Positions 18,424 to 44,816 of a stretch of DNA of 64,000 nt are shown piece after piece (the stretch's first letter is position 1; each line of letters begins with the position of its first letter). The notes beneath the pieces were generated by a model. It made no database searches. It was not told where the DNA came from and was given only the letters and a program-made list of their open reading frames with translations. The DNA is from Acidimicrobiales bacterium (GTDB lineage Bacteria > Actinomycetota > Acidimicrobiia > Acidimicrobiales > Poriferisodalaceae): assembly GCA_965213585.1 (NCBI GenBank), contig CBDBZP010000005.1, positions 1,329,376 to 1,393,375 of the forward strand, read 5' to 3'. Position numbers and translations under genes: made by a program.

Positions 18424-19032
18424 TCAGGGCCCGTCCCTGAGAACCTCGAGCGCTGCGACCGCCTCGTCCAGCTCACACCTGCGGCTGGGCCACAGCCGCT
18501 CCTCGACGGCTCGTCGAGCTGCAGCGACAACCTCAGGGACCGCCTCGCTGTAGACGTCCAGGCTGCTGGCGTCGAAGGCGACGAGGACGGCTACCGGCAA
18601 GACGATCGCGAAGAACGCCTCAGGTCCGCCACCGGGCCCGATCATCGTGGGAGCGCGGCGGGCGGCGTGGGCGTTGATCGCAGCGAGCTGCTCGAGGCCC
18701 CGACAGATCGGGTCCGCTGCGAGGAAGTGCACGGTGCCGACGCCAGCCATGGTGGCCGCCGACCGGCACAGCAGACACGGCTCCAGCGTCGTGTAGAGCC
18801 GGAACTCTGTGTAGTCGCCGAGGGGCAGTTGGGCGAGCACGTCCATCTCAGCGTGGGCGATGCTCGTGTTACGCAATCGCCCCGCAGGAGCGTCGGCTTC
18901 GCCGATCCGGTTGCGCCCCTCGGCGACGATGCGGTCGTCGGCATCGACCAGTACCGCTCCCACGGGAAACGAACCCGCTCTGAACGCTTCCCACGCAAGT
19001 TCCAGCGATCGTCGCATCGGAGGATGAACCAC
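18424..19032 (-). CDS. Zinc-dependent nucleoside/nucleotide (CDA-fold) deaminase
   Basis: HAEMDVL ... LEPCLLCRSA (H-A-E and P-C-x-x-C zinc motifs). Opposite strand to all neighbours. GC visibly lower. Confidence 0.8.
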   Translation of the reverse strand: MVHPPMRRSLELAWEAFRAGSFPVGAVLVDADDRIVAEGRNRIGEADAPAGRLRNTSIAHAEMDVLAQLPLGDYTEFRLYTTLEPCLLCRSAATMAGVGTVHFLAADPICRGLEQLAAINAHAARRAPTMIGPGGGPEAFFAIVLPVAVLVAFDASSLDVYSEAVPEVVAAARRAVEERLWPSRRCELDEAVAALEVLRDGP

Positions 19033-19170: not shown

Positions 19171-21621
19171 ATGGGCGCCCCGAGCAACGATGCCACCGAC
19201 ACGACCGCCGTGCTGGCCGCCGCCGTCGCCGCCGCCGGCGGGGTGTCGGCCGGGGTGGTGTGGGCGGCGGCGCAGCTGACCCAGCGGGCGGCGACAGGGC
19301 GGTGGGCGCCGATTGATCTGGCCGGCACCGTCGCAGCACTACCGCGGCTTCCTTCCACGGCCGCCCGCCCGGCTGGGGCATGGGAGCACACCGCTGGCCT
19401 GGTTCTGCCGCCCGGGTTGTTCTGGGTCGCTGTCGTCGTGGTCGCCGCCCCCGCCGTGGCCACGGCCGTCGCGATCGCACGCCGGGCGAGCCGGTGGGGG
19501 GCCGGCTCGGTGCCCCGTCGGCGTCTCGGCGTCGACGCCAACCCGTGGCTGGCCAGCTCCGCCCAGCTCGCTGCGCTGACCACCACCCGCTCGGGGGCGG
19601 CGGGCCGGTTCATCCTGGCCCGCCACGGCCGCCGTCTGCTGGCCACGCCCACCGGGCGGGCCTCGGCGCGGGACCGGGCCCGGCGCCGGCCCCCCGGCGG
19701 GCGGGGGGCTGTGGCCATCATCGGCCCCTCCCAGTCCGGCAAGACCACCACGGTCATCGCCGGGCTCCTGGACTGGGACGGGCCGGTGGTGTGCTCGTCG
19801 GTCAAGACCGACCTCATCGGCCCCACCATCGGCTGGCGGTCCACCCTCGGGCCCGTCGCCGTGTTCGATCCCGCCAACGCCACCCCCAATGACACCTGCG
19901 CCTGGTCGCCGCTGCGCACCGCCTCCGACTTCGTCGGCGCCGTCGAGGCCGCCCGGCGCATCTCCGAGGCCACCCCCCGCAACTCGGGGTCCGTCACCAA
20001 CGAGTCCTTCTGGGACAACCTGGCCCAGCAGCTCCTCGGTACCTGCCTGTGGGCCGCCGCCCGAGGCGGGCGGACCATGGGCGACGTGGTCGCCTGGGTG
20101 GCCACCCACGACGGTGTGGACCCCGAACGCTCCGATCTGTTGGGCCTCCTCGCTCGTTTGGCCCCGCCCGGGCACCCCGGGCCCCTCGCCCCCCGCCCCG
20201 CCGCCATGCCCGAGGACCCCGATGCCCGGGCGGCGTGGGAGGACTACGACCAGGCCCTCCAGCCCCTGGCCGGGATCCGGGCCGCCCCACCCGACACCCG
20301 CTCCAGCGTCTACATCACCGCCCAGACGCTGCTGTGGCCCTGGTCCCAGCGCACCGGCGCCGCCTCCGCGCAGGGCCGCAGCGTCGACCTGGGCTGGCTC
20401 TACGCCGACCCCGACACCGGCCGGCCACGCCCTGCCAGCCTGTACCTGTCGGCCCCTCTGGGCGCCCAGGCCCGCTACGCGCCCGTCATCGGCGGACTCC
20501 TCGGTGACCTCATCGACCAGGTCTTCGCCCACCACGCCCGCACCGGCGAACGCCTCGACCCGCCCCTGCTGGTCGTCATCGACGAGGCGGGCCAGACCCC
20601 CCTCGAGCAGCTCCCCCAGATCGCCGCCACCGTCGCCGGTCTGGGTGTGCAGCTCGTCACCGTCTGGCAGTCCAAGGCCCAGCTCGACACCGTCTACGGC
20701 ACCGGCGCCGACACCGTGTTGACGAACCACCCCACCAAGCTGTTCTTCTCGGGGCTGTCCGACTCCGCCACCCTCGCCTACCTGCGGGACCTCACCGGCG
20801 TCGAGCACGTCCCCACCCGCAGCCTCACCCGCCCGGCCGGGCTGCTCGCCACGGGCGGACGTTCGGAGAACGCCACCACCCACGAGCTGTCTCTCCTTCC
20901 CGCCCACGTCATCCGCCAACAGGCCCGCGGTCACGCCCTGCTCGTGCACGCCAACCTGGCCCCCGCCGCCGTCGCCGGCCGTCACGCCCCCAGCGACCGC
21001 CACCTCCGCCGACGGGCCCGCACCCCCCTGCCCGCCGGCACCCCCACCATCGGCCCCACCGCACCAGCCGACCCTCCGGCCGGGCCGGGCGACCGGTCCG
21101 TGACCCATCACCCCGACGGGCGGCCGGCCCCACCCGGCGTCGACCCCGCCACCGGTGAGATCCTCGAACCCAGCCCACCCCCAGCACGCGCTGCCGGTGC
21201 TGACGGCGGGGCCGGGAGCTACGTCTACCCGCCCGGCGTGACCGTCTTCTCCCACCCGCCGGCCGGCCCCGACGGCGACCAGGACGACCCCGACCCGTGG
21301 TCCGCCGACGTGGTCGACCCCGTCCTCGACGACCCCACCCTGGCCGGCACCCAGCTCAGCTTCGACCTCGACCTCGACCTCGACCCCGACCCGCCCGGAC
21401 CCGACGGCCCGGCCGGCGACGGGTCCGCAGCCGCCGGCGACAGCGGGGACGGTCCCGCTGACCTTTACCTCGACCTCGACGGTTGGGGCCCGGTCGAGGA
21501 CCTCGACCTCGACGGCTACGGGCCCGCCGACGGCGCCGACCCCTGGCCCCCGACGACGGCACCGGCGGCGACGGTGACAGCGCTGGGCGACCGTCACTGC
21601 CCGGAGCAGGGCCCACGGTGA
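19171..21621 (+). CDS. Type IV coupling protein (VirD4/TraG family) with a long acidic Pro/Asp-rich tail
   Basis: Walker A AIIGPSQSGKTTT. Walker B PLLVVIDEAGQ. The stretch GVQLVTVWQSKAQLDTVYG is also typical. Confidence 0.85.
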   Translation: MGAPSNDATDTTAVLAAAVAAAGGVSAGVVWAAAQLTQRAATGRWAPIDLAGTVAALPRLPSTAARPAGAWEHTAGLVLPPGLFWVAVVVVAAPAVATAVAIARRASRWGAGSVPRRRLGVDANPWLASSAQLAALTTTRSGAAGRFILARHGRRLLATPTGRASARDRARRRPPGGRGAVAIIGPSQSGKTTTVIAGLLDWDGPVVCSSVKTDLIGPTIGWRSTLGPVAVFDPANATPNDTCAWSPLRTASDFVGAVEAARRISEATPRNSGSVTNESFWDNLAQQLLGTCLWAAARGGRTMGDVVAWVATHDGVDPERSDLLGLLARLAPPGHPGPLAPRPAAMPEDPDARAAWEDYDQALQPLAGIRAAPPDTRSSVYITAQTLLWPWSQRTGAASAQGRSVDLGWLYADPDTGRPRPASLYLSAPLGAQARYAPVIGGLLGDLIDQVFAHHARTGERLDPPLLVVIDEAGQTPLEQLPQIAATVAGLGVQLVTVWQSKAQLDTVYGTGADTVLTNHPTKLFFSGLSDSATLAYLRDLTGVEHVPTRSLTRPAGLLATGGRSENATTHELSLLPAHVIRQQARGHALLVHANLAPAAVAGRHAPSDRHLRRRARTPLPAGTPTIGPTAPADPPAGPGDRSVTHHPDGRPAPPGVDPATGEILEPSPPPARAAGADGGAGSYVYPPGVTVFSHPPAGPDGDQDDPDPWSADVVDPVLDDPTLAGTQLSFDLDLDLDPDPPGPDGPAGDGSAAAGDSGDGPADLYLDLDGWGPVEDLDLDGYGPADGADPWPPTTAPAATVTALGDRHCPEQGPR

Positions 21622-22472
21622 GGCCACCGTTCCGGTACTTCGGCGGCAAGACGCAGCTGGCCGGCTGGATCGCCGCCCAGCTGCCCCCGCACCGCACCTA
21701 CGTCGAACCCTTCGCCGGCAGCGCAGCCGTGCTGTTCGCCAAGACCCCCTCACCCAACGAGGTCCTCAACGACCTCGACACCAACCTCGTCACCCTCCTG
21801 CGGGTCATACGGGACCGGCCCGACGAGCTGACCGCCCGCCTCGAGCTCACCCCCTGCGCCCGGGCCGAGTTCCTCGCCTGCCGGGACCGCCTCACCGCCG
21901 CCGGACCCGCAGATGACCTCGAACGGGCCCGGGCCACGTTCGTGCTCATCACCCAGTCCGTCTCGGGGACCACCCGCGCCGGGACCGGCTGGTCCACCTC
22001 CACCCGCACCGGCACCAACCGGGCCCGCACCGTGCAAGCCGGCCTGACCCGCCTGCGGGCCGCCGCTGACCGCCTGTCCGGGGTGATCCTCGACAACCGG
22101 CCCGCCGTCAAGATCATCGACCTCTACGGCACCCCTGACGCCGTCATCTATGCCGATCCCCCCTACCTCGGTGCTGTCCGCCACCGCCCCGACGGCACCA
22201 CCACCCCCACCGCCGGCGCCTACACCGTCGAGATGATGGGCGAGCCCGACCACCGGGCCCTCGCCACCGCCCTCAACAGCACCCCCGCCGCGGTGCTGGT
22301 GTCGGGCTACGCCAGTGACCTGTACGACGACGACCTCTACGCCGGCTGGTACCGCACCGAGATTGGCGTCACCACCCGCGCCGCCAACCACACCCAACCC
22401 TCCCGCAACCGGGCTCGGGCCGTCGAGGTGATCTGGTCCAACCGGCCCCTCGGCACCGGGCGGCTGTTCTGA
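21618..22472 (+). CDS. DNA adenine methyltransferase (Dam/D12 class), with no partner endonuclease seen
   Basis: FRYFGGKTQLAGWI, EPFAGSAAV and YADPPYLG. GTGA overlap with the coupling protein gene. Confidence 0.9.
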   Translation: MRPPFRYFGGKTQLAGWIAAQLPPHRTYVEPFAGSAAVLFAKTPSPNEVLNDLDTNLVTLLRVIRDRPDELTARLELTPCARAEFLACRDRLTAAGPADDLERARATFVLITQSVSGTTRAGTGWSTSTRTGTNRARTVQAGLTRLRAAADRLSGVILDNRPAVKIIDLYGTPDAVIYADPPYLGAVRHRPDGTTTPTAGAYTVEMMGEPDHRALATALNSTPAAVLVSGYASDLYDDDLYAGWYRTEIGVTTRAANHTQPSRNRARAVEVIWSNRPLGTGRLF

Positions 22473-23079: not shown

Positions 23080-23952
23080 ATGACCCACCCCGACACCACC
23101 CCCGGCGACCCGATCGACCCGGCCCTGGGCGACGCGATCCGAGGCCGCCTCGGCTGGTTCGCCCCGAGCGGTGTCCAGGCCAAACTCCTGGCCGCATCCC
23201 TTCACGGCCACGAACTCACCTACCCGCGCCTGTTCGCCACCCTGGCCCGCATGCCCGACGTCCTGGCCGGGCCCCGCCCCGACCGGGACGGCTACGTCGT
23301 CGCCCTCACCGCGCCCACCCGGCTCCCGGCCCGGAACCTCATCACCACCGATATCGAGGCGGCCTGCGTGCGTGCCCTTCACCAGAAGGCCCCCACCACC
23401 ATCACCAGCGCCCGCGACCTGCACGTCCTGGCCGAGATCGCCCCCCACGCCACAGCACTGGCCGGCGCAGCCGGCCACCTGGCCCGGCCCGCCGCCCAGG
23501 TCCTCGACGGCGTCGGCGCCTACCACCACTACAACCGGGACCTCCCCGCCGCCGAGACCGCCCTCGTCGCCGCCCTCGCCCACCACACCACCGCCGGCGG
23601 CCCCCACAGCCGCCCCGCCGCCGACACCCTCCGCGCCCTCGCCGACGTCCACCTCGACGCCGGCAACACCACTACCGCCCTCACCGCCCTCCAGGCCGCC
23701 ACCGCCGCCTACGAGACCGCCTGCGGGCCCCGCAGCCCCGAAGTCGCCGAAACCGCTCTCACCGTCGCCGGCGTCTACGCCACCGGGGGCCGTCCCGACC
23801 TGGCCCGCGAGCTCCTCGACGAGATCGACCGCCGCCTCGACGCCCCCGCCGGTCACCCCCTCCGCCAAGACCTCGACGACGAGCTCGCCCGCCACCCCCC
23901 ACCGGCCCGGCCCGCCCGGCACCTCGCCACCGTCCCCGCCCCGGCCCGATGA
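23080..23952 (+). CDS. TPR-like repeat protein
   Basis: ATG 23080 behind taaggag. The C-terminal half has Ala-rich helical repeats (TLRALADVHLDAGNTTTALTALQAATAAYE...). Confidence 0.55.
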   Translation: MTHPDTTPGDPIDPALGDAIRGRLGWFAPSGVQAKLLAASLHGHELTYPRLFATLARMPDVLAGPRPDRDGYVVALTAPTRLPARNLITTDIEAACVRALHQKAPTTITSARDLHVLAEIAPHATALAGAAGHLARPAAQVLDGVGAYHHYNRDLPAAETALVAALAHHTTAGGPHSRPAADTLRALADVHLDAGNTTTALTALQAATAAYETACGPRSPEVAETALTVAGVYATGGRPDLARELLDEIDRRLDAPAGHPLRQDLDDELARHPPPARPARHLATVPAPAR

Positions 23953-24383
23953 GCGACCCCGACCCGCACCACCAGGGCCACGCGCACCCCGCTGCCGCCG
24001 TCGGACCCCGCGCCGCAGCCGACGAGGTCGCCGACGCCACCCGGCGACTCAACCACACCCTCACCGGCACGAGATGGCTCACCGTCGCCGACCTGTACGG
24101 CATCGTCGGCTCCCTCGACCAGGCCGCCACCCGCATCCAGAACACCCTCGGCGTCCTCGCTGCGGGAGTCGACGCCCACCGCACCATTGGCGGTCACCGC
24201 CACGACCACCACGCCGACCCCGCCACCGAGCTGGCCGACGCCCGAGCCCACCTCGAGCGCTCCGTCGCCTACACGGCCGCCATCAGCAGCTTCCTGGGCC
24301 AGGCCCAAGCCGGACTCGGCCACCTGACCGAACCGAACCCGTCACGACCGGAGCCAGGACCCAGCACCGCCCGCGTCCGGTAA
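23949..24383 (+). CDS. Hypothetical protein
   Basis: ORF track. ATGA overlap with the upstream gene. Confidence 0.5.
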   Translation: MSDPDPHHQGHAHPAAAVGPRAAADEVADATRRLNHTLTGTRWLTVADLYGIVGSLDQAATRIQNTLGVLAAGVDAHRTIGGHRHDHHADPATELADARAHLERSVAYTAAISSFLGQAQAGLGHLTEPNPSRPEPGPSTARVR

Positions 24384-24439
24384 CGCCGCTATCCTGCACC
24401 CGCACCGGGAGGCGACGCCGACAGGGACGGGCCTGCCGC

Positions 24440-24718
24440 CGTCAAGATGGCTTTGGCTCGGCGCTGTTCGGCGTTCTCCCGCTTCAACCGCTTGACCCCG
24501 GCCGCCTCGGCGCCGGTCACCCCCGGCCGACGGCCGGCGTCGGTCTCGCCTGACGAACGCACTTCCGCACCGTCTCAGCCGTCGGGCCCAGCTTCTCGGC
24601 CACCGCACAGATCGTCTCCCGCTGCGAACTGTGCTCGTGCTCATGGTCGAGCACCATCCGCACCGCCCGCTCCCGGCATCTCCACCGGGTACCGACCCGG
24701 CGTGCGCTGGTGTGTCAT
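24440..24718 (-). pseudogene. IS3-family transposase OrfA remnant (at least 2 frameshifts, no OrfB)
   Basis: Own translation across frames: ...RERAVRMVLDHEHEHSSQRETICAVAEKLGPTAETVRKCVRQAE/TDAGRRPGVTGAEAAGVKRLKRENAEQRRAKAIL. Confidence 0.7.
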
Positions 24719-24828
24719 CGCTCCATCCTCTCAATGCGTGGAGCCTCCGCCAGACCCGGGGGCGCTTCAATGTCACACCCCGCTCCTATAATGAGGGCCG
24801 TTCAAACAAGAGCGAAAGGCGGCCGTCC

Positions 24829-25995
24829 ATGGCCTTCGAAGTGTCCGACCGCGGCTTCATCTTCTGGCCTGTCGGCTGCGGTGACAGCACCACGATCAAG
24901 GTGAACGACAACGTCTTCCTGCAGGTCGACCTTCGCCACACCGAGAAATCCGAGGACGACGACGAGCCGACCAGCCCCGTCGTCGACGAGCTCATGGAGC
25001 TCCTGCCGGAGATCAAAGGCACGAAGTACCTGGCGGTGTTCGCGCTCACCCACCCCGATCTCGATCACTGCCAGGGGTTTCAGATCCTCATGGAGAAGGT
25101 CGAGGCCGGCGAGCTCCGCATCGGCGAGCTGTGGTTCACGCCACGGATCTTCCGCGAGTACGACACCGATGAGGGCCTGTCCGAGGACGCCCAAGCGTTT
25201 TGCGACGAGGCGACCCGGCGGGTCGAGGCCATGGTCGGCAAGTCCGAGGACGAGATCGAGTCCGGCGACCGGGTAATGGTCATCGGGAACGACGACATCC
25301 TCGACGATGACGACTACAAGCAACTGCCTGACCGGTTCAAGACCCATCCGGGCCAGAACATCGTCGTGCTCGACGGAGCGAGCCACGAGGGCACGTTCCG
25401 GGCGTTCATTCACGCGCCGTTCGGCGACGACTCCGCCGGCGAGCGGAACCGGACGAGCCTCGCGATGCAGGTGACCCTGACCGACGGTGAAGGGTCAGGA
25501 CAAGTCCTTCTGTTCGGGGACCTCGACTACCCGGCGCTCAAGCGGATCTTCGACTACAGCGACGCCGAGGACCTTGCTTGGGACGTGCTCCTCGCGCCGC
25601 ACCACTGCTCGAAGTCCGCCATGTATCTCCAGGAGGAATTTGACGAACAGGCCGTCCTGAAGAAGGACATCGTAGTCGCCATGACCGACGCCGCCGGCGA
25701 GACCGGTTGGGTCGTCTCCTCCTCCGTGAAGGTGCCGGCCACGAACCAGCCGGGCGACAACCCGCCGCATGCGAAGGCAAAGGCGCAGTACGAGGCAATC
25801 GCCCCGGACGGGTTCCTGTGCACTGGCGACGACGGAGGCAGCGACGACCCGATCGTGTTCGCGGTCGGCGCCACCGGAATCTCGCTCCTCACGTCTGTCG
25901 ATGCCGGTGAGTCGAAGGTTGCGGCCGCGATCACGGCGGCTCGGGGCGGAACCGAGCCGCACGGGCAACAGGTCGGCTTCGGCCGACCGGCATGA
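24829..25995 (+). CDS. Metallo-beta-lactamase-fold protein (first gene of the cassette)
   Basis: ATG 24829 behind gaaagg. Motif LTHPDLDHCQG (25048-25068), an HxHxDH-like site. Later FGDLD and LLAPHHCSKS. GC visibly lower than the surroundings. Confidence 0.8.
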   Translation: MAFEVSDRGFIFWPVGCGDSTTIKVNDNVFLQVDLRHTEKSEDDDEPTSPVVDELMELLPEIKGTKYLAVFALTHPDLDHCQGFQILMEKVEAGELRIGELWFTPRIFREYDTDEGLSEDAQAFCDEATRRVEAMVGKSEDEIESGDRVMVIGNDDILDDDDYKQLPDRFKTHPGQNIVVLDGASHEGTFRAFIHAPFGDDSAGERNRTSLAMQVTLTDGEGSGQVLLFGDLDYPALKRIFDYSDAEDLAWDVLLAPHHCSKSAMYLQEEFDEQAVLKKDIVVAMTDAAGETGWVVSSSVKVPATNQPGDNPPHAKAKAQYEAIAPDGFLCTGDDGGSDDPIVFAVGATGISLLTSVDAGESKVAAAITAARGGTEPHGQQVGFGRPA

Positions 25996-28900
25996 CACCA
26001 GGGCAGGTACAGGCTGAAGCTGAGCTGCGACGAATCGCTGCGGCGTCTCCAGGAGCGATCGAGATCGACAGCATCACTCACACCGGAAGCTCGATGGTCG
26101 CTGTCGTCGGTGTCGACTGCCGCGGCTTCGACCACGTCGAGGGCGGCATCAAGCTCCGGCAGCGTGAATGGTTCGATATCTCGGTCCCGGCGAAGTTCCC
26201 GTTCAAGCCGCCTTCGGCGTGGGTACGTCACGAACGTTGGGCCGGGGCTCCGCACGTTCAGTGGAAGCGGTCCCTCTGTCTCTACGTCGCTACGGCCGTT
26301 GAGTGGAACCCGTCCGACGGCATGTACGGCTTCCTCGACCGCCTCGTCCGCTGGCTACGTGAAGCAGCGCTGAACCAGCTCGACCCTGTCGGAGGTCCCC
26401 AGCATCCCCCCGTTGCGTACCCGTCGCCCGGAACCCCACTCTTCATCCCACGCGTTGATACCCCGGCCGTCGGTCTTGCGTCGTGGGCTGGGTTCGCCGA
26501 GTTCACGTCCCCGGCTGACCGTCGCCACGACCTCGTCGGGTGGCACAAGATCGGCAGCGACAACCTGCGGCCGGAGGCCCGTTACGCGGCAGCTGTCCTC
26601 CTCAACGAGCCTCTGCCGTTCGAGTTCCCGAGGTACCTCGGCCACCTCATCCGTGATCTCGAACGCGGACGGTTCGACAAGGACGTGCTGTACCTGCTCC
26701 TCGGGATCGCCGCTCAGCGCCTGAAGGAGGACGAGCCGCTGTACGTCGTCATTGGGACGCCGATGCGGGCCACGGCAGAAGGCGAACCTCGCCAGCATCT
26801 CGCCGTGTGGCGGCTCGATGCCGAGCCTGCGGACTCGTTCAAGACGCTGCTCATCGACGCCGGCGACAACCAACGGATGAGGGAGCTGCTGGCGCGGCTT
26901 GAAGAAGCCGTCGACAAGTGGGCGCAGGTCGCGCCGGTCGAATGGTGCAAGGTCCGTGAGGCACGGCCAGAGGTCACACAGGACCGCGCTAGTGGGTCGC
27001 CCCTGCGGGTATTCGAGGGGCGGAAGGTCGCCGTATGGGGTTGCGGAGCGATCGGCTCCCACGTCGCCGAGATTCTCGTGCGGGCAGGCGTCGCTCACCT
27101 CGTGCTCCGCGATAGCGGGATCGTCGCACCGGGTGTCCTCAGCCGGCAGTGGTTCGACGACTCCGACATCGGTGAGAGCAAGGCAGCCGCGCTGAAGGAC
27201 CACCTTCTTGCCATCAACCCCGACCTCCAAGTTGACGCCCACCACGGCGACGTCATCACCGACAGCGGGATCGAGTCCGACTGGACCGACGGCGCCTCGC
27301 TGGTGGTCGAAGCGACCGCAAACAACGCGGTCTCTCGGTACCTCGAAACACGCCGGATGAACTCGTCTCGCGCCGCGCATGTCGCAACCCTGGTGTTCGG
27401 GCACACCGCTGAGCACGGGCGCGCCACGTTCATCCCATCCGAATCAGGTGCCGGGCCGGCGGACGCCGCACGGAACGCCAAACTCGCCGCCCTCCGGAAC
27501 CCGGACCTCCGAGCGTTCGCCGACGAGTTCTGGCCCGACCCGCCGCGCACCGCCTACTTCCAGCCCGAGCCTAGGTGCTCGGAACCGACCTTTACGGGCT
27601 CCGAGGCAGAGGTCTCGGCGTTGACGGCGTACATGGTCGGCTTCGTCGCACAGGAATTTCATTCGGGACAGGAGTCGATCTCGGCGTTCTACGCGTCGGT
27701 CGCAGACGATGGCCCCAACAGCTCCGTCGTCCGGTTCGCCGCCGACCTCGTGCTCAACGAACCCTTCGGCGGCTACGAGGTTCGAATCGCGGCCTCCGCC
27801 CTCGCTGAGCTTCGGGCCTGGACGCGGCGAAGCGAACGGAACGCGCCGGGCCACGAAACAGGAGGAGTCCTCTTCGGGGAACGGGACGACGCCCTGCAAG
27901 TCATCTGGGTCACCGATATCCTCGGTCCTCCGCCGGACAGCCAGGCGTCGCCGTGTGCGTTCATTTGCGGCATTGATGGGGTCGACGATGCCGCTGCGTA
28001 CTTTCAAACACGCGCTCGCGATTCGTCGTCGCCGATTGGCATGTGGCACACCCACCCCGACGGCCCCCCGCGTCCGAGCCCGACCGATCGCGGCGGCATG
28101 GCACAGCTCGTAGGCAACGACGACCGGCCCCTGCCGAAGCAGCTGTTGCTCATCGTCGGCGGCAGCCGGGAGTCGCACAACCTCGCGGCGTACACGTATG
28201 ACAGCGACACGCCGCCGCCAGCGACGTTCGAGGTCGCCACTCGGCCCCTGCCGGTGGACGGGCGACCTCCCCATCGGATTGGCCTCGCCCTTTCAGGGGG
28301 CGGCTTCCGAGCCGTCGCGTTCCACCTCGGCGTTCTCCGTGGCCTACACGACCGGGGCGTCCTCGAGCACGTGGACGTGGTGTCCTCGGTGTCGGGCGGC
28401 TCGATCATCGCTGCGATGTGGGCGTACAGCGACGACTCGTTCGAGGAGTTCGACGCCCGAGTCGTATCACTGCTCAAAGGCGGCCTGACCGGGAAGCTCC
28501 TCGGCGTTGCACTGCGCCGAGGGCCGCAAGCCGCAGCGTCGAGCGTCGTCGCAGCAGCCGGCTCAGCGTGGAACCTCGCCGCCGGGATCGCCCGACGTGT
28601 CACGGGGACAGCGAGACGACCCGCCGAGCCGCCGTTCCGGCGTGCGGTGACACGCACGCGGGCCCTCGAGGACGTCTTCGCCGCCCGCTTGTTCGGACAG
28701 GCAACGGTTGACGAGCCACTGCGGCCCCTGGCGACCGTCATCAACGCCGCCGAGCTCCGGAGCGGCAACGCGTTCCGCTACGGCAGTGCAGAAGGCGGCT
28801 CCAGCCGCTTCGGCCGGCTCACCGGGCCGGCGCCGACAGTCGCGCGCGCTGTAACCGCCAGCGCCGCCTACCCCGTCGCGTTCCCCGCGATGGACGACGT

Positions 28901-29402
28901 GCTCGCCTTCACCGGCTTCGACGGCACCGAGCGCACGGAGCGCGTCCTTCTCACTGACGGAGGCGTCTACGACAACCTCGGCGTCACAGCTCTTCAACCC
29001 GGCCGGAAACCCCGCTACAGCACGAACGTTCACCCGGTGGACTTCATCGTGTCCGCCGACGCCGGCTATGGCGTCCTTGACACCGACAAGTGGCCGTTGT
29101 GGTGGCCCACACGGATGAAGCGATCCTTCGAGTCCGTGTATCGGAAGGTCCAGGACGCCGGTAGGGGCCTCCTGCACGAGCACCGTGACAACAGAAAGAT
29201 CCGCGGGTTCGCGCTTCCGTTCCTCGGCATGAACGACCGGGCGCTACCGCTCCGGCCACCCGACCTCGTGCCGCGCGACGCCGTCGCCGGATACCCGACG
29301 AACTTCGCAGCGATGACCGACGACGACCTCGCGCTCCTCACCCTGCGCGGCGAACAGCTCGTGCGGCTCACGATCGAAGCGCACTGCCCCGAGATCGCGT
29401 GA
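25992..29402 (+). CDS. Four-module fusion protein: E2-like + E1-like (ThiF/MoeB) + JAB/JAMM peptidase + patatin-like phospholipase
   Basis: E2-like APHVQWKRSLCLY (Cys96, 26277-26279). E1 Rossmann VAVWGCGAIGSHVAEILVRAGV...LSRQ (27039-27056) and Cys529 (27576-27578). JAMM E622 plus HTHPDGPPRPSPTD (28047-28088). Patatin GGGFRA (28296-28313), SVSGG (28386-28400) and DGG (28956-28964). ATGA overlap with the MBL gene. Confidence 0.9.
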   Translation: MTPGQVQAEAELRRIAAASPGAIEIDSITHTGSSMVAVVGVDCRGFDHVEGGIKLRQREWFDISVPAKFPFKPPSAWVRHERWAGAPHVQWKRSLCLYVATAVEWNPSDGMYGFLDRLVRWLREAALNQLDPVGGPQHPPVAYPSPGTPLFIPRVDTPAVGLASWAGFAEFTSPADRRHDLVGWHKIGSDNLRPEARYAAAVLLNEPLPFEFPRYLGHLIRDLERGRFDKDVLYLLLGIAAQRLKEDEPLYVVIGTPMRATAEGEPRQHLAVWRLDAEPADSFKTLLIDAGDNQRMRELLARLEEAVDKWAQVAPVEWCKVREARPEVTQDRASGSPLRVFEGRKVAVWGCGAIGSHVAEILVRAGVAHLVLRDSGIVAPGVLSRQWFDDSDIGESKAAALKDHLLAINPDLQVDAHHGDVITDSGIESDWTDGASLVVEATANNAVSRYLETRRMNSSRAAHVATLVFGHTAEHGRATFIPSESGAGPADAARNAKLAALRNPDLRAFADEFWPDPPRTAYFQPEPRCSEPTFTGSEAEVSALTAYMVGFVAQEFHSGQESISAFYASVADDGPNSSVVRFAADLVLNEPFGGYEVRIAASALAELRAWTRRSERNAPGHETGGVLFGERDDALQVIWVTDILGPPPDSQASPCAFICGIDGVDDAAAYFQTRARDSSSPIGMWHTHPDGPPRPSPTDRGGMAQLVGNDDRPLPKQLLLIVGGSRESHNLAAYTYDSDTPPPATFEVATRPLPVDGRPPHRIGLALSGGGFRAVAFHLGVLRGLHDRGVLEHVDVVSSVSGGSIIAAMWAYSDDSFEEFDARVVSLLKGGLTGKLLGVALRRGPQAAASSVVAAAGSAWNLAAGIARRVTGTARRPAEPPFRRAVTRTRALEDVFAARLFGQATVDEPLRPLATVINAAELRSGNAFRYGSAEGGSSRFGRLTGPAPTVARAVTASAAYPVAFPAMDDVLAFTGFDGTERTERVLLTDGGVYDNLGVTALQPGRKPRYSTNVHPVDFIVSADAGYGVLDTDKWPLWWPTRMKRSFESVYRKVQDAGRGLLHEHRDNRKIRGFALPFLGMNDRALPLRPPDLVPRDAVAGYPTNFAAMTDDDLALLTLRGEQLVRLTIEAHCPEIA

Positions 29403-29930
29403 ACTCGCACCCGTCACCGCTGGAGACGGCATCGCTCCCGCACGCGAATGTTTATAAGAGCCCTCAACGAAACAGGCCGCCCGCTGCCTATGACCGTCGA
29501 CGCTCTACGCCATGCACAATCGACTGGGAGATCGGTACGGCGGTCCCGCCCCAAGTGGCGAGATCCGGTGACCCACCGGAGCAGCCCCAATGTGCCGTTG
29601 GCGGACATGGGTGGCGAGCGCCCGGAACGGCACGACGGCCGACGCAACGGCTCGTGCGCGACTCGGCGTTCGTCACGCTGCGTACAGGCCGGGACGAGGA
29701 CTCTGTCGGCGTGAGTGCGCGGTTCCTACTAGTCGCTGACGGCCCCTCCGCCTCGCGTGCTGGCGGTGACGTCTCGCTGTTCGGAGCCGAACCACCTGAC
29801 GATGGTGGTCCGTCGTCGTCGGACCCGGCAGGGCGGGCCGTGACCGACCCGCTCAGCGTAGGCCAGCCGGCCATCGGGTCGACCCGGTCCGTGGGTGGCA
29901 CCCGCCGTGGGCTGCGGGATCACCGACGGG

Positions 29931-31136
29931 TCAGTTGCCCGGGGTCCTTCCGCCGGCAGCGTCGCCTCGGCGACCCGTGGTTGGGGGCGGCGCGATCTGG
30001 GCGGTGATCCAGGCGGCCAGGCCGGGGAGGGCGAACTCGACGTGGCCGTAGCCGGCCGGGGTGAGGAGATGGTGCTCGCGAATGAGGCTGTCGCGCACCG
30101 GTGAGAGCTGGCGGTGGGTGCGACCCAGGGCCTCGGCGATGGCGCCGGTCGGCACTCGCTCGACGCCGAGCGACGCCGCTGCGGTCAGGTAGCGCTGCTC
30201 TCCGGGGCTCAGTCGATCCCACCGGCCGGCGTAGAGGTTGCGTTCGAGCTGGCGGGCCGCCTCGGCTGCGCCGGTGCGGGCGTGGGCCACGCCGACGACG
30301 TCGATGTCGGCGGCGGCGTCCCAGGTGTGCTTGCCTGCCAGTTGGATGGCGTAGGGGTAGCCGCCGGTGGCGGCCCACAGCACGTCGAGGGCGTCAGGGT
30401 GCACGTCTCTCCCCGCTCGCAGGAACGGCGCCTCCAGCGCGTCAAGGGTCCCGTCCCGGTCGAGGTTGGCCAGCACCGTCAGGTCCTGACGCTCGATGAA
30501 GGTCGTCCCTGGGGTGGCGGCGAGAACCTCGCGAACGTGGGGTAACCCGGCGGCCAGCAACGCCACCGGGAGGCGCCGCTGGTTGGCGACGAGCTGCAGT
30601 GTGCCCGACAGCGCAGCCAGGTCGGCGGCGGAGGCGCCTTGGAGCTCGTCGACGACCAGGAGCACTGACAGGCGCCGCTCGGCGGCCTGGCGGCCGAGGT
30701 CCTCGACGAGCGCCGTCACAGAACGGGCCGGGACGGGCTGGGACCTTGTGAACTCGGCCCGGGCGCCGCCCAGTGGGGTGGTGGCCTCGATGCTGGCGGG
30801 CCGCACGCTGCGCCCGGCCCGGCGCAGCGTGCCGACCAGTCGGGGCTCGAGGCCCGGGAGCTGCTCGGCGAGCATCTGGGCTAGACCCCAGTCGGGGCGG
30901 CCCGCCCAGTTCAGGTCCAGCCAGCCCCACTCGTCGATGACGTGACGGCGGACGTGGTCCAACAGCACGGTCTTGCCCGTCCCGCGGGGCCCGACGACGA
31001 TGGTGTGATACTCGCCCCGGCCCGGGCCCCGCTGGAGGTTCATCAGGATCTGGTGGATCAGCTCGCCCCGCCCGGCCAGCACCGGCGGGGCCACCCCGTA
31101 GCCGGGGTTGAACGGGTTCTCGCCGTAAGACTCCAT
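29931..31136 (-). CDS. AAA/ORC-like ATPase with a C-terminal winged-helix domain
   Basis: Walker A VVGPRGTGKTVLL. Walker B LLVVDELQ. C-terminal LSPGEQRYLTAAASLG...IAEALGRTHRQLSPVRDSLI. Confidence 0.75.
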   Translation of the reverse strand: MESYGENPFNPGYGVAPPVLAGRGELIHQILMNLQRGPGRGEYHTIVVGPRGTGKTVLLDHVRRHVIDEWGWLDLNWAGRPDWGLAQMLAEQLPGLEPRLVGTLRRAGRSVRPASIEATTPLGGARAEFTRSQPVPARSVTALVEDLGRQAAERRLSVLLVVDELQGASAADLAALSGTLQLVANQRRLPVALLAAGLPHVREVLAATPGTTFIERQDLTVLANLDRDGTLDALEAPFLRAGRDVHPDALDVLWAATGGYPYAIQLAGKHTWDAAADIDVVGVAHARTGAAEAARQLERNLYAGRWDRLSPGEQRYLTAAASLGVERVPTGAIAEALGRTHRQLSPVRDSLIREHHLLTPAGYGHVEFALPGLAAWITAQIAPPPTTGRRGDAAGGRTPGN

Positions 31137-31231: not shown

Positions 31232-33478
31232 TCACGGGTCGCTGCGGGGCCCGATGGGCGCTCGGGCCAGGACGATGTCGTCGAGGTAGAGGTGGGTGGG
31301 GCGGTCGACGCCGGCGGGGCCGCCGTAGAAGGTGTCCATGCGGATCTCGTTGATTCCCCAGCCGAAGGTCTGGTGGGTGGGCCCGTAGAAGGTGACGGTC
31401 AGGTCGAGGCCTTCGGTGCCGTTGACCCAGCCGGTGATGCGGCCGTCGTGGCGGCCGGGGGTGTTGATCCGGTAGCGGACCTCGATGGTGTTCCACGCCC
31501 CTTTGGTGAGCCGCAGGGGGGCGCCGTTGGGGCGGCGGAAGTAGGGGTCGATGCCGACGTAGCGGCCGTCGGGGCGGGGGCCGTCGCTGATGTGCTCGCT
31601 GCCGGCGGCCCAGACGTAGAAGTAGCCGACGAGCGCGCACCCGGAGCGCCACATGAGCCGGCCCGACCAGGCCGACTGGTGGTAGGTGCCGCCACCTGAG
31701 CCGGATCCGGGTGCGGTGCCGGCTCTCGGGTTGCCGGCCAGGCCGGGGAGCTTCCCGCCGACGGTGTCGCACCCGAAGTCGCCCGGGACGTAGAGCCGGT
31801 AGCGGAGGTACAGCTCGTCTTCCCAGGCCCGGGGGTGACCGAGGGCGGTGAGGGTCTGGTGGTAGCGGGCCCCGAACTTGGCTGAGTCGGTGTGGGCGGG
31901 CTGGCTGTGGGGGTTGAAGTCGACCCGCAGGGCTTGGCCGTGACCGCCGGGCGGGGCGGGCACGGCGCGGAGGCGCCGCCCGTCGGGGCCGGTGCCGTCG
32001 TCGGGCCCGAACGTGGCCGAGATCCCGTAGTCGGCCCACCAGCGCGGTCCGGGGTGGTCGTAGGTGCCCATCCAGATGACGTCGGCCCGGCCGGCGAGGC
32101 GGGCCTCGGCGGTGGGGGTGTCGGCGTCGCCCAGCACCCGCCCGGGGACCGCCGACGCCCCGGCTACGTCGCCAGGGTCAGCCGGGGGCGCGGGTGGTGG
32201 CGGCGGGGGGGTCTCGAACGCGACGTGAAAATGGTGGCGGTGGAGGCTGTTGGTGAACCAGCCCGGCCGGCGGGCCAGGTCGGCCCAGGGCTGGCCGACC
32301 TCGTCGGGGCTGAGCAGGTCAGCGGGCCGCCCGGCCAGGTAGTCGGCTAGGGCCCGGGCGTGGGGGTTGGTGGCGGTGACGGGCACCGCCGGGCTGTCGG
32401 CGGGTCCGACCAGGGCGATGTCGGTGGCCCGCCCGTAGTAGTGGTTCGAGACCGAGCAGCCCGGCCCGGTGTTGGCGCCGCCGGGGAGGACGGCGCAGCG
32501 GGAGTGGCCGGTGGCGAAGTTGATCAGGTGCAGCCGCCACCGCCCGGCCAGCTCGGCCAGGAGGGCCACGAGGCGCCAGTCCACCGTGCCCGCTTCGAGG
32601 TCGGCCCGGGCGGCGGCGCTCATGGTCACGTTCGGGTGCGCCAGGAGCACGGCCACCTCGACGGGACCGCCGCCGGTGAGGGTGTAGCGGGCGGCCCAGG
32701 CCAGGACGTCGTCGGCGTAGACGCTCGAGCGGTTGTAGGCCCACAGGGCCCGGCGTTCGTCGTTCTCGTCGTCGATGCGGCCTCCGGCGGCGTGGCAGAG
32801 GTAGTCGGCGGCGCCGACGGCGGCGTCGGGGTAGGTGTGGGGGCTGGCGGTGCCGTCACCGTCGGCGTCGACACCCCACGCGGCCCAGGTGGCGGTGATG
32901 AACTGCATGGGTCCGGTGGCCCGGTCCCAGCGGGGGTCGTCGTGCCAGGGGCTCCCCCCGGCCGGGACGGCGATGGCGGCGACGCCTGGTGAGCCGTCGA
33001 GGGCGGGGCCGACGATGGGTGGGGTGACGTCGAGGTCGGCGGTGAGGGTGGCGCTCCCGTAGCGGCCGTGGTCGGACTCGATCTTGGCCACGGCGGCGAG
33101 GAGCTGCCAGCGCAGCCCCGGGCAGCGGGCGGCGGCGTCGGCGTAGACGCCGAGGAGCACGGCGGGGATGTCGGCGACGGCGCCGCCGGCGACGGCGGGC
33201 TGGGTGAGACGGGGGGCGGCCACCAGCAGCGGCAGACCCATCGTCGTGGCCAGCATCCCGGTGACCGCGGCGGCGGCCACGATCGCTCTGGGGCGGCCTC
33301 GCCGTTGCTGTCGGCGGCGGGCGACCCAACGGAGGGCGGGCAGGGCGGGACCGGTCACGTCTCTCCCGAGAGTCCACCCGGCAGCCCGGGTGCCGCCCGC
33401 TCGGGTCCGGCGCCCATGTGGGCGGTAGCGGCGCGACGGATCGGCGGGGGGCGGCCTCTTGGGGTTGGGAGGCGCCAC
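31232..33478 (-). CDS. Three-domain cell-wall hydrolase: lytic transglycosylase + LAS/M15-type metallopeptidase + C-terminal polysaccharide-lyase/concanavalin-like domain
   Basis: SLT-like LLAAVAKIESDHGRYG...GPMQF. LAS motifs SNHYYGRATDI and HRHHFHVAF. The C-terminal part GGTYHQSAWSGRLMWR...WNTIEVRYRINTPGRHDGRITGWVNG resembles the PL14-like fold. Confidence 0.75.
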   Translation of the reverse strand: MAPPNPKRPPPADPSRRYRPHGRRTRAGGTRAAGWTLGRDVTGPALPALRWVARRRQQRRGRPRAIVAAAAVTGMLATTMGLPLLVAAPRLTQPAVAGGAVADIPAVLLGVYADAAARCPGLRWQLLAAVAKIESDHGRYGSATLTADLDVTPPIVGPALDGSPGVAAIAVPAGGSPWHDDPRWDRATGPMQFITATWAAWGVDADGDGTASPHTYPDAAVGAADYLCHAAGGRIDDENDERRALWAYNRSSVYADDVLAWAARYTLTGGGPVEVAVLLAHPNVTMSAAARADLEAGTVDWRLVALLAELAGRWRLHLINFATGHSRCAVLPGGANTGPGCSVSNHYYGRATDIALVGPADSPAVPVTATNPHARALADYLAGRPADLLSPDEVGQPWADLARRPGWFTNSLHRHHFHVAFETPPPPPPAPPADPGDVAGASAVPGRVLGDADTPTAEARLAGRADVIWMGTYDHPGPRWWADYGISATFGPDDGTGPDGRRLRAVPAPPGGHGQALRVDFNPHSQPAHTDSAKFGARYHQTLTALGHPRAWEDELYLRYRLYVPGDFGCDTVGGKLPGLAGNPRAGTAPGSGSGGGTYHQSAWSGRLMWRSGCALVGYFYVWAAGSEHISDGPRPDGRYVGIDPYFRRPNGAPLRLTKGAWNTIEVRYRINTPGRHDGRITGWVNGTEGLDLTVTFYGPTHQTFGWGINEIRMDTFYGGPAGVDRPTHLYLDDIVLARAPIGPRSDP

Positions 33479-35607: not shown

Positions 35608-37125
35608 GTGCCCACGACGACCGGCCCCGCCGGCCCGCCCCGGGTGGGGGAGGGGCGGGTGCTGGCCTTCACGTTCGCCTCCCACCGGGGCGGCGGCCTG
35701 TTCCTCGGGCTGGGGGCAGCCCAGCTGGGAATCCTCGCCGTCGGCCTGGCCGTGGGGTTCGCCGGCTTCCGGGCCGGCGCCCCCGCCGCCGCGCTGGGCG
35801 CCCTGGCGGTGGCGGCCACCCTGGCCCTGGGCCAGGTCGGCGGCCTGTACCTGTGGGAGCACACCCGAGCCCTAGCCGTCGGCGCCCTGGCCGCCGCCAC
35901 CCGACGCCGCTGGCAGGCACCACCGGCCTCGCATCACTTGGGCCCGGTCCCCGGCGTCGAGGCGTCCCTGCCGGGGTGCCTGGCCGGGGTGGAGCTGCGC
36001 TCAGGGACCGGGCCCCTCTCCGGCGCCGGGCTCGTCTACGACCGCGCCGACCGGTCCCTGACCGTCACCGTCGGGGTCCCCGGGGTGGCGTTCACCCTGC
36101 TGTCGGGCGACGAGCAGCTGGGCCTGCTGGCCGGCTGGGGGGAGGTGCTACGCGCCTTCGCCACCGAACGGGGCCCGGTCGTACGGGTCGGCTGGTCTGA
36201 CTGGGCGGTCCCCGCCGCGCTGGCCGACCATCACGCCTGGGCCGCCACCCAACCGGGCGGACCCCCCGCCGCCCGGGACTCCTACACCGCCCTGCTGGGC
36301 GGGGTGGCCGGTGAGGCCACCAGTCACGACGTCACCGTCACCGTCACCGTGACCGCGGCGCGCTCCCGCCCGGCCGGCAGCGGCCGACCCGGATCGGCCG
36401 CCCACCTCGACCGCCTCGAGCACCTCGCCGCCCAGGCCGCCGCCGACCTGACCGCCGCCCTGCGCCAGGCCGGGCTGTCACCCACCGAACCGCTGACCGC
36501 CACCCAGATGGCCCTTGCCGTCCGGGAACGAGTCGACCCCTTCGGGTGGCGGCCCGACCCCGCCGTCGGAACCCTGGTGGACCGCCTCGGGCTGGGCGCC
36601 GTGGGCCCCGCCCGAGCGGACCTGGCCCGCCGCCACCTCACCGTCGACGCCGCCTCCCACCGCGTCTACCAGATCCTCCAGCTCCCCCAGACCCCCCTGC
36701 CCGCCGACTGGTTCCGGCCCGTCCTGCAGACCACCGGGCTCCGCCGGGCCATCACCGCCGTCCTCGAGCCCGTCGCCCCGTCGCTCAGCCGCCGGCGTAC
36801 CGCCCGGGAGATCCTCCGCCTCGAATCCGACGCCGACACCCGCGTCGAACGGGGCTTCCGGGTCTCAGCCGCCCACCGACGCGCCGTCGCCGACGCCGAA
36901 ACCCGAGAACAAGAACTCATTTCCGGGTTCCCCGAGTACACGGCCGCCCTGTTCGTCTGCGTCACCGCCCCCGACCCCGACCACCTCGACGAGGACTGCG
37001 CCACCCTCGAAGCCACCGCCCGCCAACACGGCCTCCTGCTACGACCCCGCGACGGCGAACACGACCTGGCCTGGGCCACCAGCCTGCCCCTCGGTCTCGG
37101 TCTCACCCCCGCCGGACTCCAATGA
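35608..37125 (+). CDS. SCO6880-like conjugation membrane protein
   Basis: An N-terminal double TM segment (GGGLFLGLGAAQLGILAVGLAVGFAGF) precedes a large soluble domain. It sits immediately upstream of the VirB4-like ATPase, as in actinobacterial ICEs. Confidence 0.55.
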   Translation: MPTTTGPAGPPRVGEGRVLAFTFASHRGGGLFLGLGAAQLGILAVGLAVGFAGFRAGAPAAALGALAVAATLALGQVGGLYLWEHTRALAVGALAAATRRRWQAPPASHHLGPVPGVEASLPGCLAGVELRSGTGPLSGAGLVYDRADRSLTVTVGVPGVAFTLLSGDEQLGLLAGWGEVLRAFATERGPVVRVGWSDWAVPAALADHHAWAATQPGGPPAARDSYTALLGGVAGEATSHDVTVTVTVTAARSRPAGSGRPGSAAHLDRLEHLAAQAAADLTAALRQAGLSPTEPLTATQMALAVRERVDPFGWRPDPAVGTLVDRLGLGAVGPARADLARRHLTVDAASHRVYQILQLPQTPLPADWFRPVLQTTGLRRAITAVLEPVAPSLSRRRTAREILRLESDADTRVERGFRVSAAHRRAVADAETREQELISGFPEYTAALFVCVTAPDPDHLDEDCATLEATARQHGLLLRPRDGEHDLAWATSLPLGLGLTPAGLQ

Positions 37126-43980: not shown

Positions 43981-44114
43981 CGGCCTGAGTCCGCGATTGG
44001 TAGGCGAAGTCGCCCTCGAACACGCTGAGCCGCTCCAGCGACGGCCCTGCCACCTACCGCCGGCTGGATGGCGCCATCAACTCGGCCAGAACGTCGCCGG
44101 CGCTCCGTGGCCCG

Positions 44115-44438
44115 CTACTGGTGCGCCGGGTCCGAGCGAGCCCCGTCGGCATCGGACGGGCGCTGGGGGGGCCAGTCGATCCGGCCGCCGATCAGTTGCT
44201 CGAGAGCGGCTCGCGGGACACGCAGTCGGCGTCCCAAGCGGACCACGGGTAGACCGTTGCGGCCTCCCGAGTCGAGGAACTCGTGGGCGAGGTCGTACGC
44301 ACAAGTCCGCCCCACCCTCAGCACCACGGCGGCCTCCTCAACGGACAGCAGCGGTGGTGCCGGCGATCGAACGGCCGGTTCCGCTGGCAGACGGTCGCGA
44401 AGGGGCGAGCAGGGACGGTCGCGGTGCGGGCGGGCCAT
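44115..44438 (-). CDS. Excisionase-family/MerR-like HTH DNA-binding protein
   Basis: LLSVEEAAVVLRVGRTCAYDLAHEF...LPVVRLGRRLRVPRAALEQLI. Adjacent to the tRNA-like repeat. Confidence 0.65.
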   Translation of the reverse strand: MARPHRDRPCSPLRDRLPAEPAVRSPAPPLLSVEEAAVVLRVGRTCAYDLAHEFLDSGGRNGLPVVRLGRRLRVPRAALEQLIGGRIDWPPQRPSDADGARSDPAHQ

Positions 44439-44672
44439 GAGCACAATTAGAGGCCGGCTCATCGAGAATGCGTTGCAAGATCGGGTTCGGGCATGCCGGG
44501 GCCCAGCGCCATGGGCCGTCCCGTTCTCGGCCCGGGGTGCACGAAAGGTGCACGGACGCCGCCGGACGGGCCCGGATCAGCCGGATCGGCGGCGCCCGCC
44601 CGAGGGGCGTTCTGCCTGGTCACGGCGTACGAAGGCGCACTTGGACGGACTCCGCCGGAAGGGCCGGACGCA

Positions 44673-44716
44673 ACTTCTAATCCGACGGTCGCAGGTTCGA
44701 ATCCTGCCGGGGGCGC
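44673..44716 (+). repeat. tRNA 3'-half-like sequence (anticodon loop to discriminator), putative att site and right end of the ICE
   Basis: acttctaatccgacggtcgcaggttcgaatcctgccgggggcgc contains a canonical T-arm (GCAGG-TTCGAAT-CCTGC). No matching 5' half or CCA. Nearly identical to 47295-47338. Confidence 0.7.
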
Positions 44717-44774
44717 TGCGAATTACCAGGTCAGCAGCCTGGACGGCTCGGGGCGGCAGGCCCGAAACCGCAGT

Positions 44775-44816
44775 TGTCCCATCTCTGTCCCATCAATCGG
44801 TCCAGGCTTGTCCCAT
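44775..44816. repeat. Three TGTCCCAT motifs (44775, 44786, 44809)
   Basis: Read from the DNA. A homologous pair lies at 47169 and 47181. Confidence 0.6.

Follow-up and report, generated by a model that had tools for sequence, protein, structure and literature searches.

When a bacterial gene joins ubiquitin-type conjugation enzymes to a phospholipase in one polypeptide, is this a defence system of its own or a variant of one already known? The question is raised by two adjacent genes at positions 24829–29402 of a 64,000 nt stretch of DNA from an Acidimicrobiales bacterium of the Poriferisodalaceae (GenBank assembly GCA_965213585.1, contig CBDBZP010000005.1), the whole of which we call the window. 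The first gene codes for a metallo-beta-lactamase (MBL) fold protein, the second for a chain with E2-like, E1-like, JAB and patatin domains. A first-pass annotation, made from the sequence alone, had presented them as a self-contained module and implied that it was new. The core of the pair is in fact a catalogued defence system with a name, 6A-MBL, and is not new. The link with a patatin is undescribed in the literature we have searched, and the fusion is not unique to the window. The locus is probably a gene-fusion variant of 6A-MBL, in which the MBL protein would be the conjugated substrate, the long protein the ligase and deconjugase, and the fused patatin a membrane-damaging output.

The gene pair and its 6A-MBL core

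The features of the locus are the following (window positions, strand, description and evidence):

24829–25995, +, MBL-fold gene, 388 aa (open reading frame called from the ATG at 24829)
25939–25992, +, disordered tail of the MBL protein, aa 371–388, A-R-G-G-T-E-P-H-G-Q-Q-V-G-F-G then R-P-A (alignment and predicted local distance difference test score, pLDDT)
25992–25995, +, ATGA stop/start overlap of the MBL and fusion genes (sequence)
25992–29402, +, E2-E1-JAB-patatin fusion gene, 1136 aa (open reading frame call, Pfam, PADLOC, NCBIfam, alignment, AlphaFold 2 model)
25992–26441, +, E2-like Prok-E2_A/UBC domain, aa about 1–150, with catalytic C96 and H88 (Pfam PF14457)
26997–27671, +, E1-like ThiF/MoeB adenylation domain, aa about 336–560 (Pfam PF00899, Foldseek)
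27771–28211, +, JAB/JAMM metallopeptidase domain, aa about 594–740, equivalent to Cap3 (Pfam PF14464, PADLOC)
28278–29399, +, patatin-like phospholipase domain, aa 763–1136 (Pfam PF01734)

The two genes are translationally coupled through the ATGA overlap, as the first-pass annotation had proposed. The public record of the fusion protein (P0001, 1102 aa) begins at Met35 of the open reading frame (window 25992–26093 region). Because homologues align with the fusion protein from residue 1, the true start is the ATG at 25992 and not the annotated Met35. The gene pair has a G+C fraction of 0.67, against 0.755 in its flanks. A scan of 24300–30100 for promoters and terminators, which is uninformative at such G+C content, found none. 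Public labels for genes of this kind read merely "ThiF family adenylyltransferase", "patatin-like phospholipase" or "hypothetical protein", a matter of practical interest for annotation.

The order of the four domains had been read correctly from the letters: All the motifs are found at the residues given, and the four Pfam domains score above their gathering scores. The E2-like domain (Prok-E2_A, aa 50–150, E 1.1e-18) contains HVQWKRSLCLY at 88–98, with C96. The E1-like domain (ThiF, aa 345–453, E 3.1e-19) has the ATP loop GCGAIG at 350–355, LSRQ at 383–386 (R385, Q386) and K397, and its flexible crossover loop is PRCSEP at 527–532, with C529. In the JAB domain (Prok-JAB, aa 611–724, E 2.7e-11) the JAMM site consists of E622 plus HTHPDGPPRPSPTD at 686–699, corresponding to the pattern HxHx7Sx2D (H686, H688, S696, D699). 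A proline-rich linker of roughly 25 residues joins the ligase part to the patatin (PF01734, aa 765–1000, E 2.8e-19). This last domain has the GGGxR/K oxyanion loop (GGGFRA, 769–774), the GxSxG-type elbow (here S-V-S-G-G, 799–803, with nucleophile S801) and the DG[GA] aspartate (DGG, 989–991, with D989) of patatins, and its helical C-terminal part is conserved as well.

Practically all these sites are invariant in an alignment of 48 full-length homologues of the fusion protein, with identities of 36–88%. In all 48, H88 and C96 of the E2 part, G350/G352/G355, R385, Q386, K397 and C529 of the E1 part, E622, H688, S696 and D699 of the JAMM site, and G769–G771, R773, S801-G802-G803 and D989-G990-G991 of the patatin are kept; H686 is kept in at least 90%.

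The closest solved structure is Cap2, both by sequence and by fold. PADLOC detects its Cap2-type E1-E2 model (4.9e-88) and a JAB model (2.4e-22). The AlphaFold 2 model of the whole chain has a pLDDT of 84.1 and a predicted template modelling score of 0.76, and the C529 loop (525–532) is among its only disordered stretches (pLDDT below 50), as expected for an E1. Foldseek gives the E. cloacae Cap2-CdnD complex (7to3, 6.6e-23) as the best match in the PDB, and the E1 domain matches that of Cap2 bound to the CdnD tail (7tsq, template modelling score 0.88). This agrees with the analogy to Cap2 and Cap3 which had been drawn from motifs.

Both proteins pass equivalog models of NCBIfam. The fusion protein has 362.7 bits against a cut-off of 320 with NF058523, "anti-phage 6A-MBL system cap2_3 protein", and the MBL protein 267.7 against 220 with NF058524, "anti-phage 6A-MBL system MBL-fold protein". 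The first model spans aa 52–715 of the fusion protein, the patatin lies outside it. An E2-E1-JAB triple-module protein with a specialised MBL gene is the type 6a operon of Iyer, Burroughs & Aravind 2006. With a name and two models already in place, the novelty implied by the first-pass annotation falls for the core, and on the very point which that annotation had itself named as decisive. The anti-phage activity of 6A-MBL was reportedly established by van den Berg et al. 2024, to whom citing papers attribute it. Later papers count the system among the defences of P. aeruginosa that have been confirmed by experiment, and list it with those against jumbo phages. As ubiquitin-like defences of bacteria go, it is among the least understood. 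No publication linking a patatin to E2-E1-JAB or 6a-type systems was found in our search, which is incomplete, so that an earlier description is possible.

The window locus shares with 6A-MBL the two-gene core, with the MBL gene directly upstream of the E2-E1-JAB protein, the end of the MBL tail, which in both clades is a glycine with a short optional extension, and a setting in mobile elements or defence islands. On the other hand, its clade is deeply divergent, with a VGFG instead of a PRAG tail, and 375 aa of patatin follow the JAB domain, so the description "two genes, no further enzymatic domain" does not apply to it. The systems of E. coli and Xanthomonas which we inspected are formed by two genes plus a WYL regulator, and they have no lipase.

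We should also note that in two plasmids, the E. coli IncI plasmid pAMSC6 (locus L086) and Xanthomonas citri pCuR (L088), the WYL regulator of the two-gene system is divergent. Enterobacterial plasmid copies are annotated as "ThiF family adenylyltransferase" plus "hypothetical protein".

The MBL protein and its tail

The identity of the MBL protein comes from NF058524, as Pfam detects the fold only weakly (E 0.08). Its motif 2, THPDLDH at 74–80, is a variant (H75-x-D77-x-D79-H80), and the metal ligands H75/D77/D79/H80, H195, D231 and H258/H259 are invariant in 44 MBL homologues. The AlphaFold 2 model (pLDDT 81.6) has an MBL fold, and its best match in the PDB is the beta-lactamase-like nuclease domain of ComEC (9ic4, E 4e-10, template modelling score 0.75). 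The upstream MBL partner recognised from THPDLDH is thus confirmed by the family model and by the ComEC match. Judging from the model, the protein has a ComEC-like phosphodiesterase/nuclease fold, with a predicted nuclease activity. A Foldseek comparison of the model with viral structures gave no informative match.

The last 30 residues or so of this protein are predicted to be disordered, with pLDDT below 50 at 379–388. They follow the consensus A-R-G-x4-P-x3-V-G-F-G, in which G383-F384-G385 (25975–25983) is invariant among the 44 homologues. In the window the extension after GFG is RPA (25984–25992). A larger set of 120 MBL homologues has GFG followed by 0–4 variable residues in 116 cases: The extension has two residues in 45, four in 43, three in 20, one in 5 and none in 3. 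Several homologues terminate exactly at GFG or GYG. In the canonical 6A-MBL clade the tail is a PRAG-type motif plus 0–4 residues, for example AAAPRAG+VSNQ in an E. coli plasmid, PPRAG in Polaromonas, APRAG+SPR in Xanthomonas, PTRAG in Agrobacterium and TPRAG in Bradyrhizobium.

A tail of this kind is known from type II CBASS, a system of anti-phage signaling based on cyclic oligonucleotides. The cGAS/DncV-like nucleotidyltransferase (CD-NTase) of this system has a disordered, conserved C-terminus which enters the adenylation site of Cap2, and Cap3 cleaves exactly after its last residue (Ledvina et al.). The MBL tail resembles that of the CD-NTase, since it is disordered and has a conserved terminal glycine with a short extension. 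By this analogy, the part of the "missing" ubiquitin-like protein (Ubl) most likely falls to the MBL protein, conjugated through its own tail, which is the predicted site of trimming by the JAB domain and of adenylation by the E1 domain. The first-pass annotation, which called the module self-contained, missed this probable substrate, while its idea of an effector held. The tail is a family-wide feature (GFG or PRAG plus 0–4 residues), and it points both to the probable substrate and to the residues to mutate.

The likeness to type II CBASS goes further: The window protein has a Cap2-like E2-E1 and a Cap3-like JAB, an enzyme whose conserved tail is disordered takes the place of a beta-grasp Ubl as putative substrate, and there is a patatin-type output. 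Nevertheless, no CD-NTase is found in the window or in the homologous loci, the conjugated enzyme would be an MBL hydrolase, and a single chain unites the equivalents of Cap2 and Cap3 with the lipase. In one paper, "MBL pathways" are placed beside type II CBASS and Pycsar, as systems in which a fused E2-E1 protein conjugates "their respective signaling enzymes". The in-vivo target of Cap2 conjugation in type II CBASS is still described as unknown. The Bil and Bub systems are different, as they have a separate beta-grasp Ubl gene: We found no Ubl in the flanks and no conserved third gene.

The MBL tail, with its [V/T]-[F/Y]-G and a short extension that would be cleaved off, also resembles the C-termini of ATG8/LC3, which are ligated to phosphatidylethanolamine. 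Cap2-type enzymes in turn resemble ATG7 (E1) and ATG3/ATG10 (E2) (Ledvina et al.), and a lipid-acting domain is attached to the window protein. However, the window system has no beta-grasp modifier, and a lipid acceptor would be speculative, a lead only. If it were true, the lipase would have an obvious role.

The patatin in homologous loci and the proposed mechanism

In order to place the fusion, we have compared 80 related loci from species-representative genomes, about 60 of them encoding all four domains in one protein. Their hosts belong to the Actinomycetota, Acidobacteriota, Chloroflexota, Alpha-, Beta- and Gammaproteobacteria, Spirochaetia, Cyanobacteria, Verrucomicrobiota, Planctomycetota, Gemmatimonadota and others. 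An MBL gene is found directly upstream, ending a few bases from the ligase start, in about 58 of the 60 full-length loci. When the 6129 open reading frames of the 80 loci are clustered all against all, no gene family beyond the MBL and ligase pair is present in more than nine loci, and no antitoxin-like partner is conserved among the neighbours. Pfam and PADLOC detect neither a CD-NTase nor a Ubl among 145 flanking open reading frames of the homologous loci, and Pfam finds no cyclase in the flanks scanned in the window. The absence of both genes nearby, first remarked for the window, thus extends to about 60 homologous loci. A hidden third gene was not found in the window either: The open reading frames at 29399–30007, 23171–24553 and 23949–24383 have no Pfam match, and the translation of the one at 24342–24776 (−) is of low complexity.

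Two apparent natural fusions of MBL, ligase and patatin, P0139 (1531 aa) and L009 6621–11489 (1622 aa), have been rejected as "Rosetta stone" evidence. Their similarity to the MBL protein breaks off near residue 315, where out-of-frame junk begins, so that they are frameshift merges in long-read assemblies.

A second, shorter MBL-fold gene, of about 270–290 aa and with a classical HxHxDH motif, is found beside 6A-type modules of both clades, in nine of about 60 fused loci. It is not present in the window. PADLOC assigns it to PDC-M48B with 298 bits, and it has weak matches of the Apyc1, ComEC and Avs1a types. Its role might be that of an accessory nuclease or of an off-switch. Examples are:

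L003, 12009–12899
L046, 11600–12418
L023, 5890–6714
L084, 7438–8289
L087, 6183–6992 (Polaromonas CJ2 pPNAP01)
L092, 6169–7026 (Sandaracinus)

Four-domain fusions are widespread: At least 60 species, from many phyla, have them, and they are also found in plasmids of Streptomyces, Rhodococcus and Rhizobium. They form about 100 clusters at 90% identity, with about 38 representatives at 50%. The patatin family to which the window domain belongs is larger, with 1384 clusters, mostly of stand-alone proteins of 363–410 aa. In many sister operons a stand-alone patatin gene comes directly after or before the MBL and E2-E1-JAB genes. These separate patatins have the same length as the fused domain (about 365–410 aa), are 44–58% identical to it and share a C-terminal RGEQLT motif. 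In the PRAG-tail clade they are found in Xanthobacter L056, in L061, L073, L077 and L079, and in plasmids of Agrobacterium leguminum (pTiCFBP4996), Sphaerotilus sulfidivorans and Bradyrhizobium sp. 26S5. In the VGFG-tail clade, that of the window, they are found in Sandaracinus amylolyticus, Sphingobium yanoikuyae, L097 and L099. The three-gene operons have the same parts in the same order, with overlapping stop and start codons: The difference is that their patatin is a polypeptide of its own, while in the window genes two and three form a single open reading frame.

The position of the patatin may also have other contents. A 238-aa predicted transmembrane protein occupies it in L098 (6364–7080), its start overlapping the ligase stop codon, and in P0119 (L081 5001–8483) a metallophosphatase-like C-terminal domain is fused to E2-E1-JAB. 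It is empty in the E. coli and Xanthomonas plasmids and in L096, and Klebsiella is also among the two-gene systems without a patatin. A tree of the E2-E1-JAB part, built by neighbour joining, places an unfused group of 801 aa and also the Metallophos variant within the fused proteins. Between clades, the patatins are 44–46% identical over their full length (window 28278–29399 compared with L056 9189–10397 and L061 8383–9627), against about 25% for the MBL proteins and about 25–27% for the ligases. The better conservation of the patatin may reflect either a stronger constraint or a more recent movement of the lipase module.

Because the patatin is fused, separate, replaced or absent across the family and is conserved between clades, we read it as a swappable effector module, as in CBASS, and the window gene as a fusion of components two and three. 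The statement that regulators and effector form one polypeptide is therefore correct for the window, but this is not a special case: It is one point on a continuum of fusion and fission. As a patatin, a transmembrane protein or a phosphoesterase is present in a large share of the family, the output is not necessarily due to the MBL protein alone. The patatin is not an orthologue of CapV. This possibility was rejected, as the CBASS phospholipase models match it over no more than some 50 residues at its start (E about 7e-4), and consequently it provides no evidence for activation by cyclic nucleotides.

What we propose for the chemistry of the conjugation, for trigger and target and for the gating of the lipase goes a step beyond the anatomy, conserved sites, tail, strict gene pair, lack of a cyclase or Ubl gene and patatin series described above, and we infer it from homology to Cap2 and Cap3. 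The flexible MBL tail would play the part of ubiquitin in eukaryotes or of the CD-NTase tail in type II CBASS, and the fusion protein would be Cap2 (E2 plus E1) and Cap3 (JAB) in one chain. The JAB domain would trim RPA after G-F-G; the E1 domain would then adenylate Gly385 and take the tail as a thioester on C529, the tail would be transferred to C96 of the E2 domain, and this domain would ligate it to an amine on some target. The JAB domain could also reverse the conjugation, keeping the system off in uninfected cells. The patatin would be a membrane-degrading output module, which its fusion to the ligase and protease would bring into one complex with the MBL substrate. Accumulation of conjugated MBL protein, triggered by phage, would turn on the nuclease, the lipase or both, leading to abortive infection.

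Several observations weigh against this proposal. The identity to canonical 6A-MBL is only about 23–27% for the ligase and 25–31% for the MBL protein, and the ligase score of 363 bits is modestly above the cut-off of 320. No lysine of the patatin domain is invariant among the 48 homologues, which makes it unlikely that the lipase has a fixed acceptor site. The patatin is unlike CapV beyond the oxyanion loop, and the mode of regulation of CapV is not transferable to it. Finally, the core mechanism does not depend on the lipase, as two-gene systems work without a patatin.

The control of the lipase may be explained in different ways. Effectors have been repeatedly fused to the JAB end, which favours a direct control by conjugation or by the complex of ligase and substrate. 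Taken to its limit, this would give a pathway without a messenger, in which ligation of the MBL tail would directly activate the fused phospholipase and no cyclic nucleotide would act in between, an idea we advance only tentatively. The acceptor could be the fusion protein itself, a phage protein or, as for ATG8, the amine of membrane phosphatidylethanolamine. If this were true, the pair would be the simplest system for reconstituting the target and output logic of Cap2-type conjugation, with only two polypeptides.

It is doubtful that a relay of the CBASS type operates instead, in which the MBL protein, primed through its tail, would make a diffusible small molecule, for instance one derived from a nucleotide or a nucleic acid, that activates the patatin or the transmembrane effector allosterically, the fusion being incidental. 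The third components (patatin, transmembrane protein, phosphoesterase) are indeed the effector types of cyclic-nucleotide systems, the wording "signaling enzymes" covers type II CBASS, Pycsar and MBL pathways alike, and the recurrent second MBL, distantly similar to Apyc1 and ComEC (PDC-M48B), could degrade a signal. However, enzymes of the MBL fold are hydrolases, the structure that best matches the model is that of a DNA nuclease domain, and we know of no MBL signal synthase. Two-gene systems have no separate effector to receive a signal, no ligand-sensor domain can be recognised in the patatin, which does not match CapV either, and the fact that effectors have repeatedly been fused to the JAB end speaks for a physical coupling and not for a signal that diffuses.

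The MBL nuclease might also be the sole killing effector, with the patatin as an accessory for membrane localisation, lipid remodelling or back-up and not as a gated suicide lipase. The two-gene systems of E. coli, Klebsiella and Xanthomonas, which lack a patatin and where the nuclease would have to be the effector, agree with this, as do the ComEC-like nuclease fold and the MBL metal ligands, which stay invariant in the patatin-bearing clade. What makes it improbable is the patatin itself: Its catalytic dyad and oxyanion loop are invariant in the 48 fusions, it is the best conserved component between clades (44–46% against about 25%), which points to a selected enzymatic role, and a transmembrane protein or a phosphoesterase may stand in its place, an exchange typical of effectors.

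For the proposed gene-fusion variant of 6A-MBL, the fused form has the advantage of packing ligase, protease and effector in one chain, which may be purified with a single partner. Cultured carriers of fused or three-gene systems include Streptomyces flavofungini JCM 4753 and Paraburkholderia ginsengiterrae DCY85; plasmids of Rhodococcus pyridinivorans and Streptomyces, and Agrobacterium pTiCFBP4996, are further available carriers.

Genomic setting

The neighbours of the gene pair in the window are the following:

18424–19032, −, cytidine/dCMP-deaminase-like open reading frame, also MafB19-like
19171–21621, TraG/VirD4 coupling protein (Pfam)
21483–22472, +, Dam-type N6-adenine methyltransferase
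29931–31136, −, AAA_16 ATPase
31232–33478, −, SLT/PL14 protein
36546–38492, ATPase with a below-threshold AAA_10 match, read as VirB4-like

Tad pilus genes are found further upstream of the pair. The deaminase-like open reading frame, the Dam methylase and the AAA_16 ATPase flank the module inside the conjugation cluster. The suggestion that the locus is cargo of a conjugative element is borne out by these neighbours (TraG/VirD4, the weak VirB4-like match, SLT and Tad genes) and by the lower G+C content, and it is reasonable to consider the gene pair as low-G+C cargo of such an element. Homologous loci are in a similar situation, among integrases, transposases and relaxases. Their defence neighbours include restriction-modification methylases, Dsr1, PD-Lambda-2, Pycsar, E2-CBASS and Cas1, and defence-associated regulators are found near them: CapP/CapH in 4–5 of about 40 loci, and WYL. 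An E2-E1-JAB protein is matched in 248 plasmid records, 165 of them from Klebsiella and 26 from Escherichia; 129 are typed as conjugative.

A function for the mobile element and not against phages (addiction, entry exclusion or competition between conjugative elements) is very improbable, even though the locus lies between conjugation and Tad pilus genes and its homologues are frequent on conjugative plasmids and near relaxases, integrases and transposases: Defence systems commonly ride on such elements, the neighbours include bona fide defence genes as well as CapH/CapP and WYL regulators, no antitoxin-like partner is conserved, and anti-phage activity has been reported for the family.

Two other regions of the window have features of interest. 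A second patch of low G+C content (0.64) contains an 829-aa open reading frame without Pfam match (41491–43980), followed downstream by a Mutator-family transposase (44864–46252) and an AbiEii-like nucleotidyltransferase toxin open reading frame (47347–48078). The region 41491–48078 may be another cargo or defence locus. Near the end of the window, a tRNA-Pro (TGG) at 59700–59776 abuts an open reading frame with a TrwC relaxase domain (59715–61031, −), next to which is an IS110-family transposase (61190–62419, +). Possibly, a second integrated element has its edge here.

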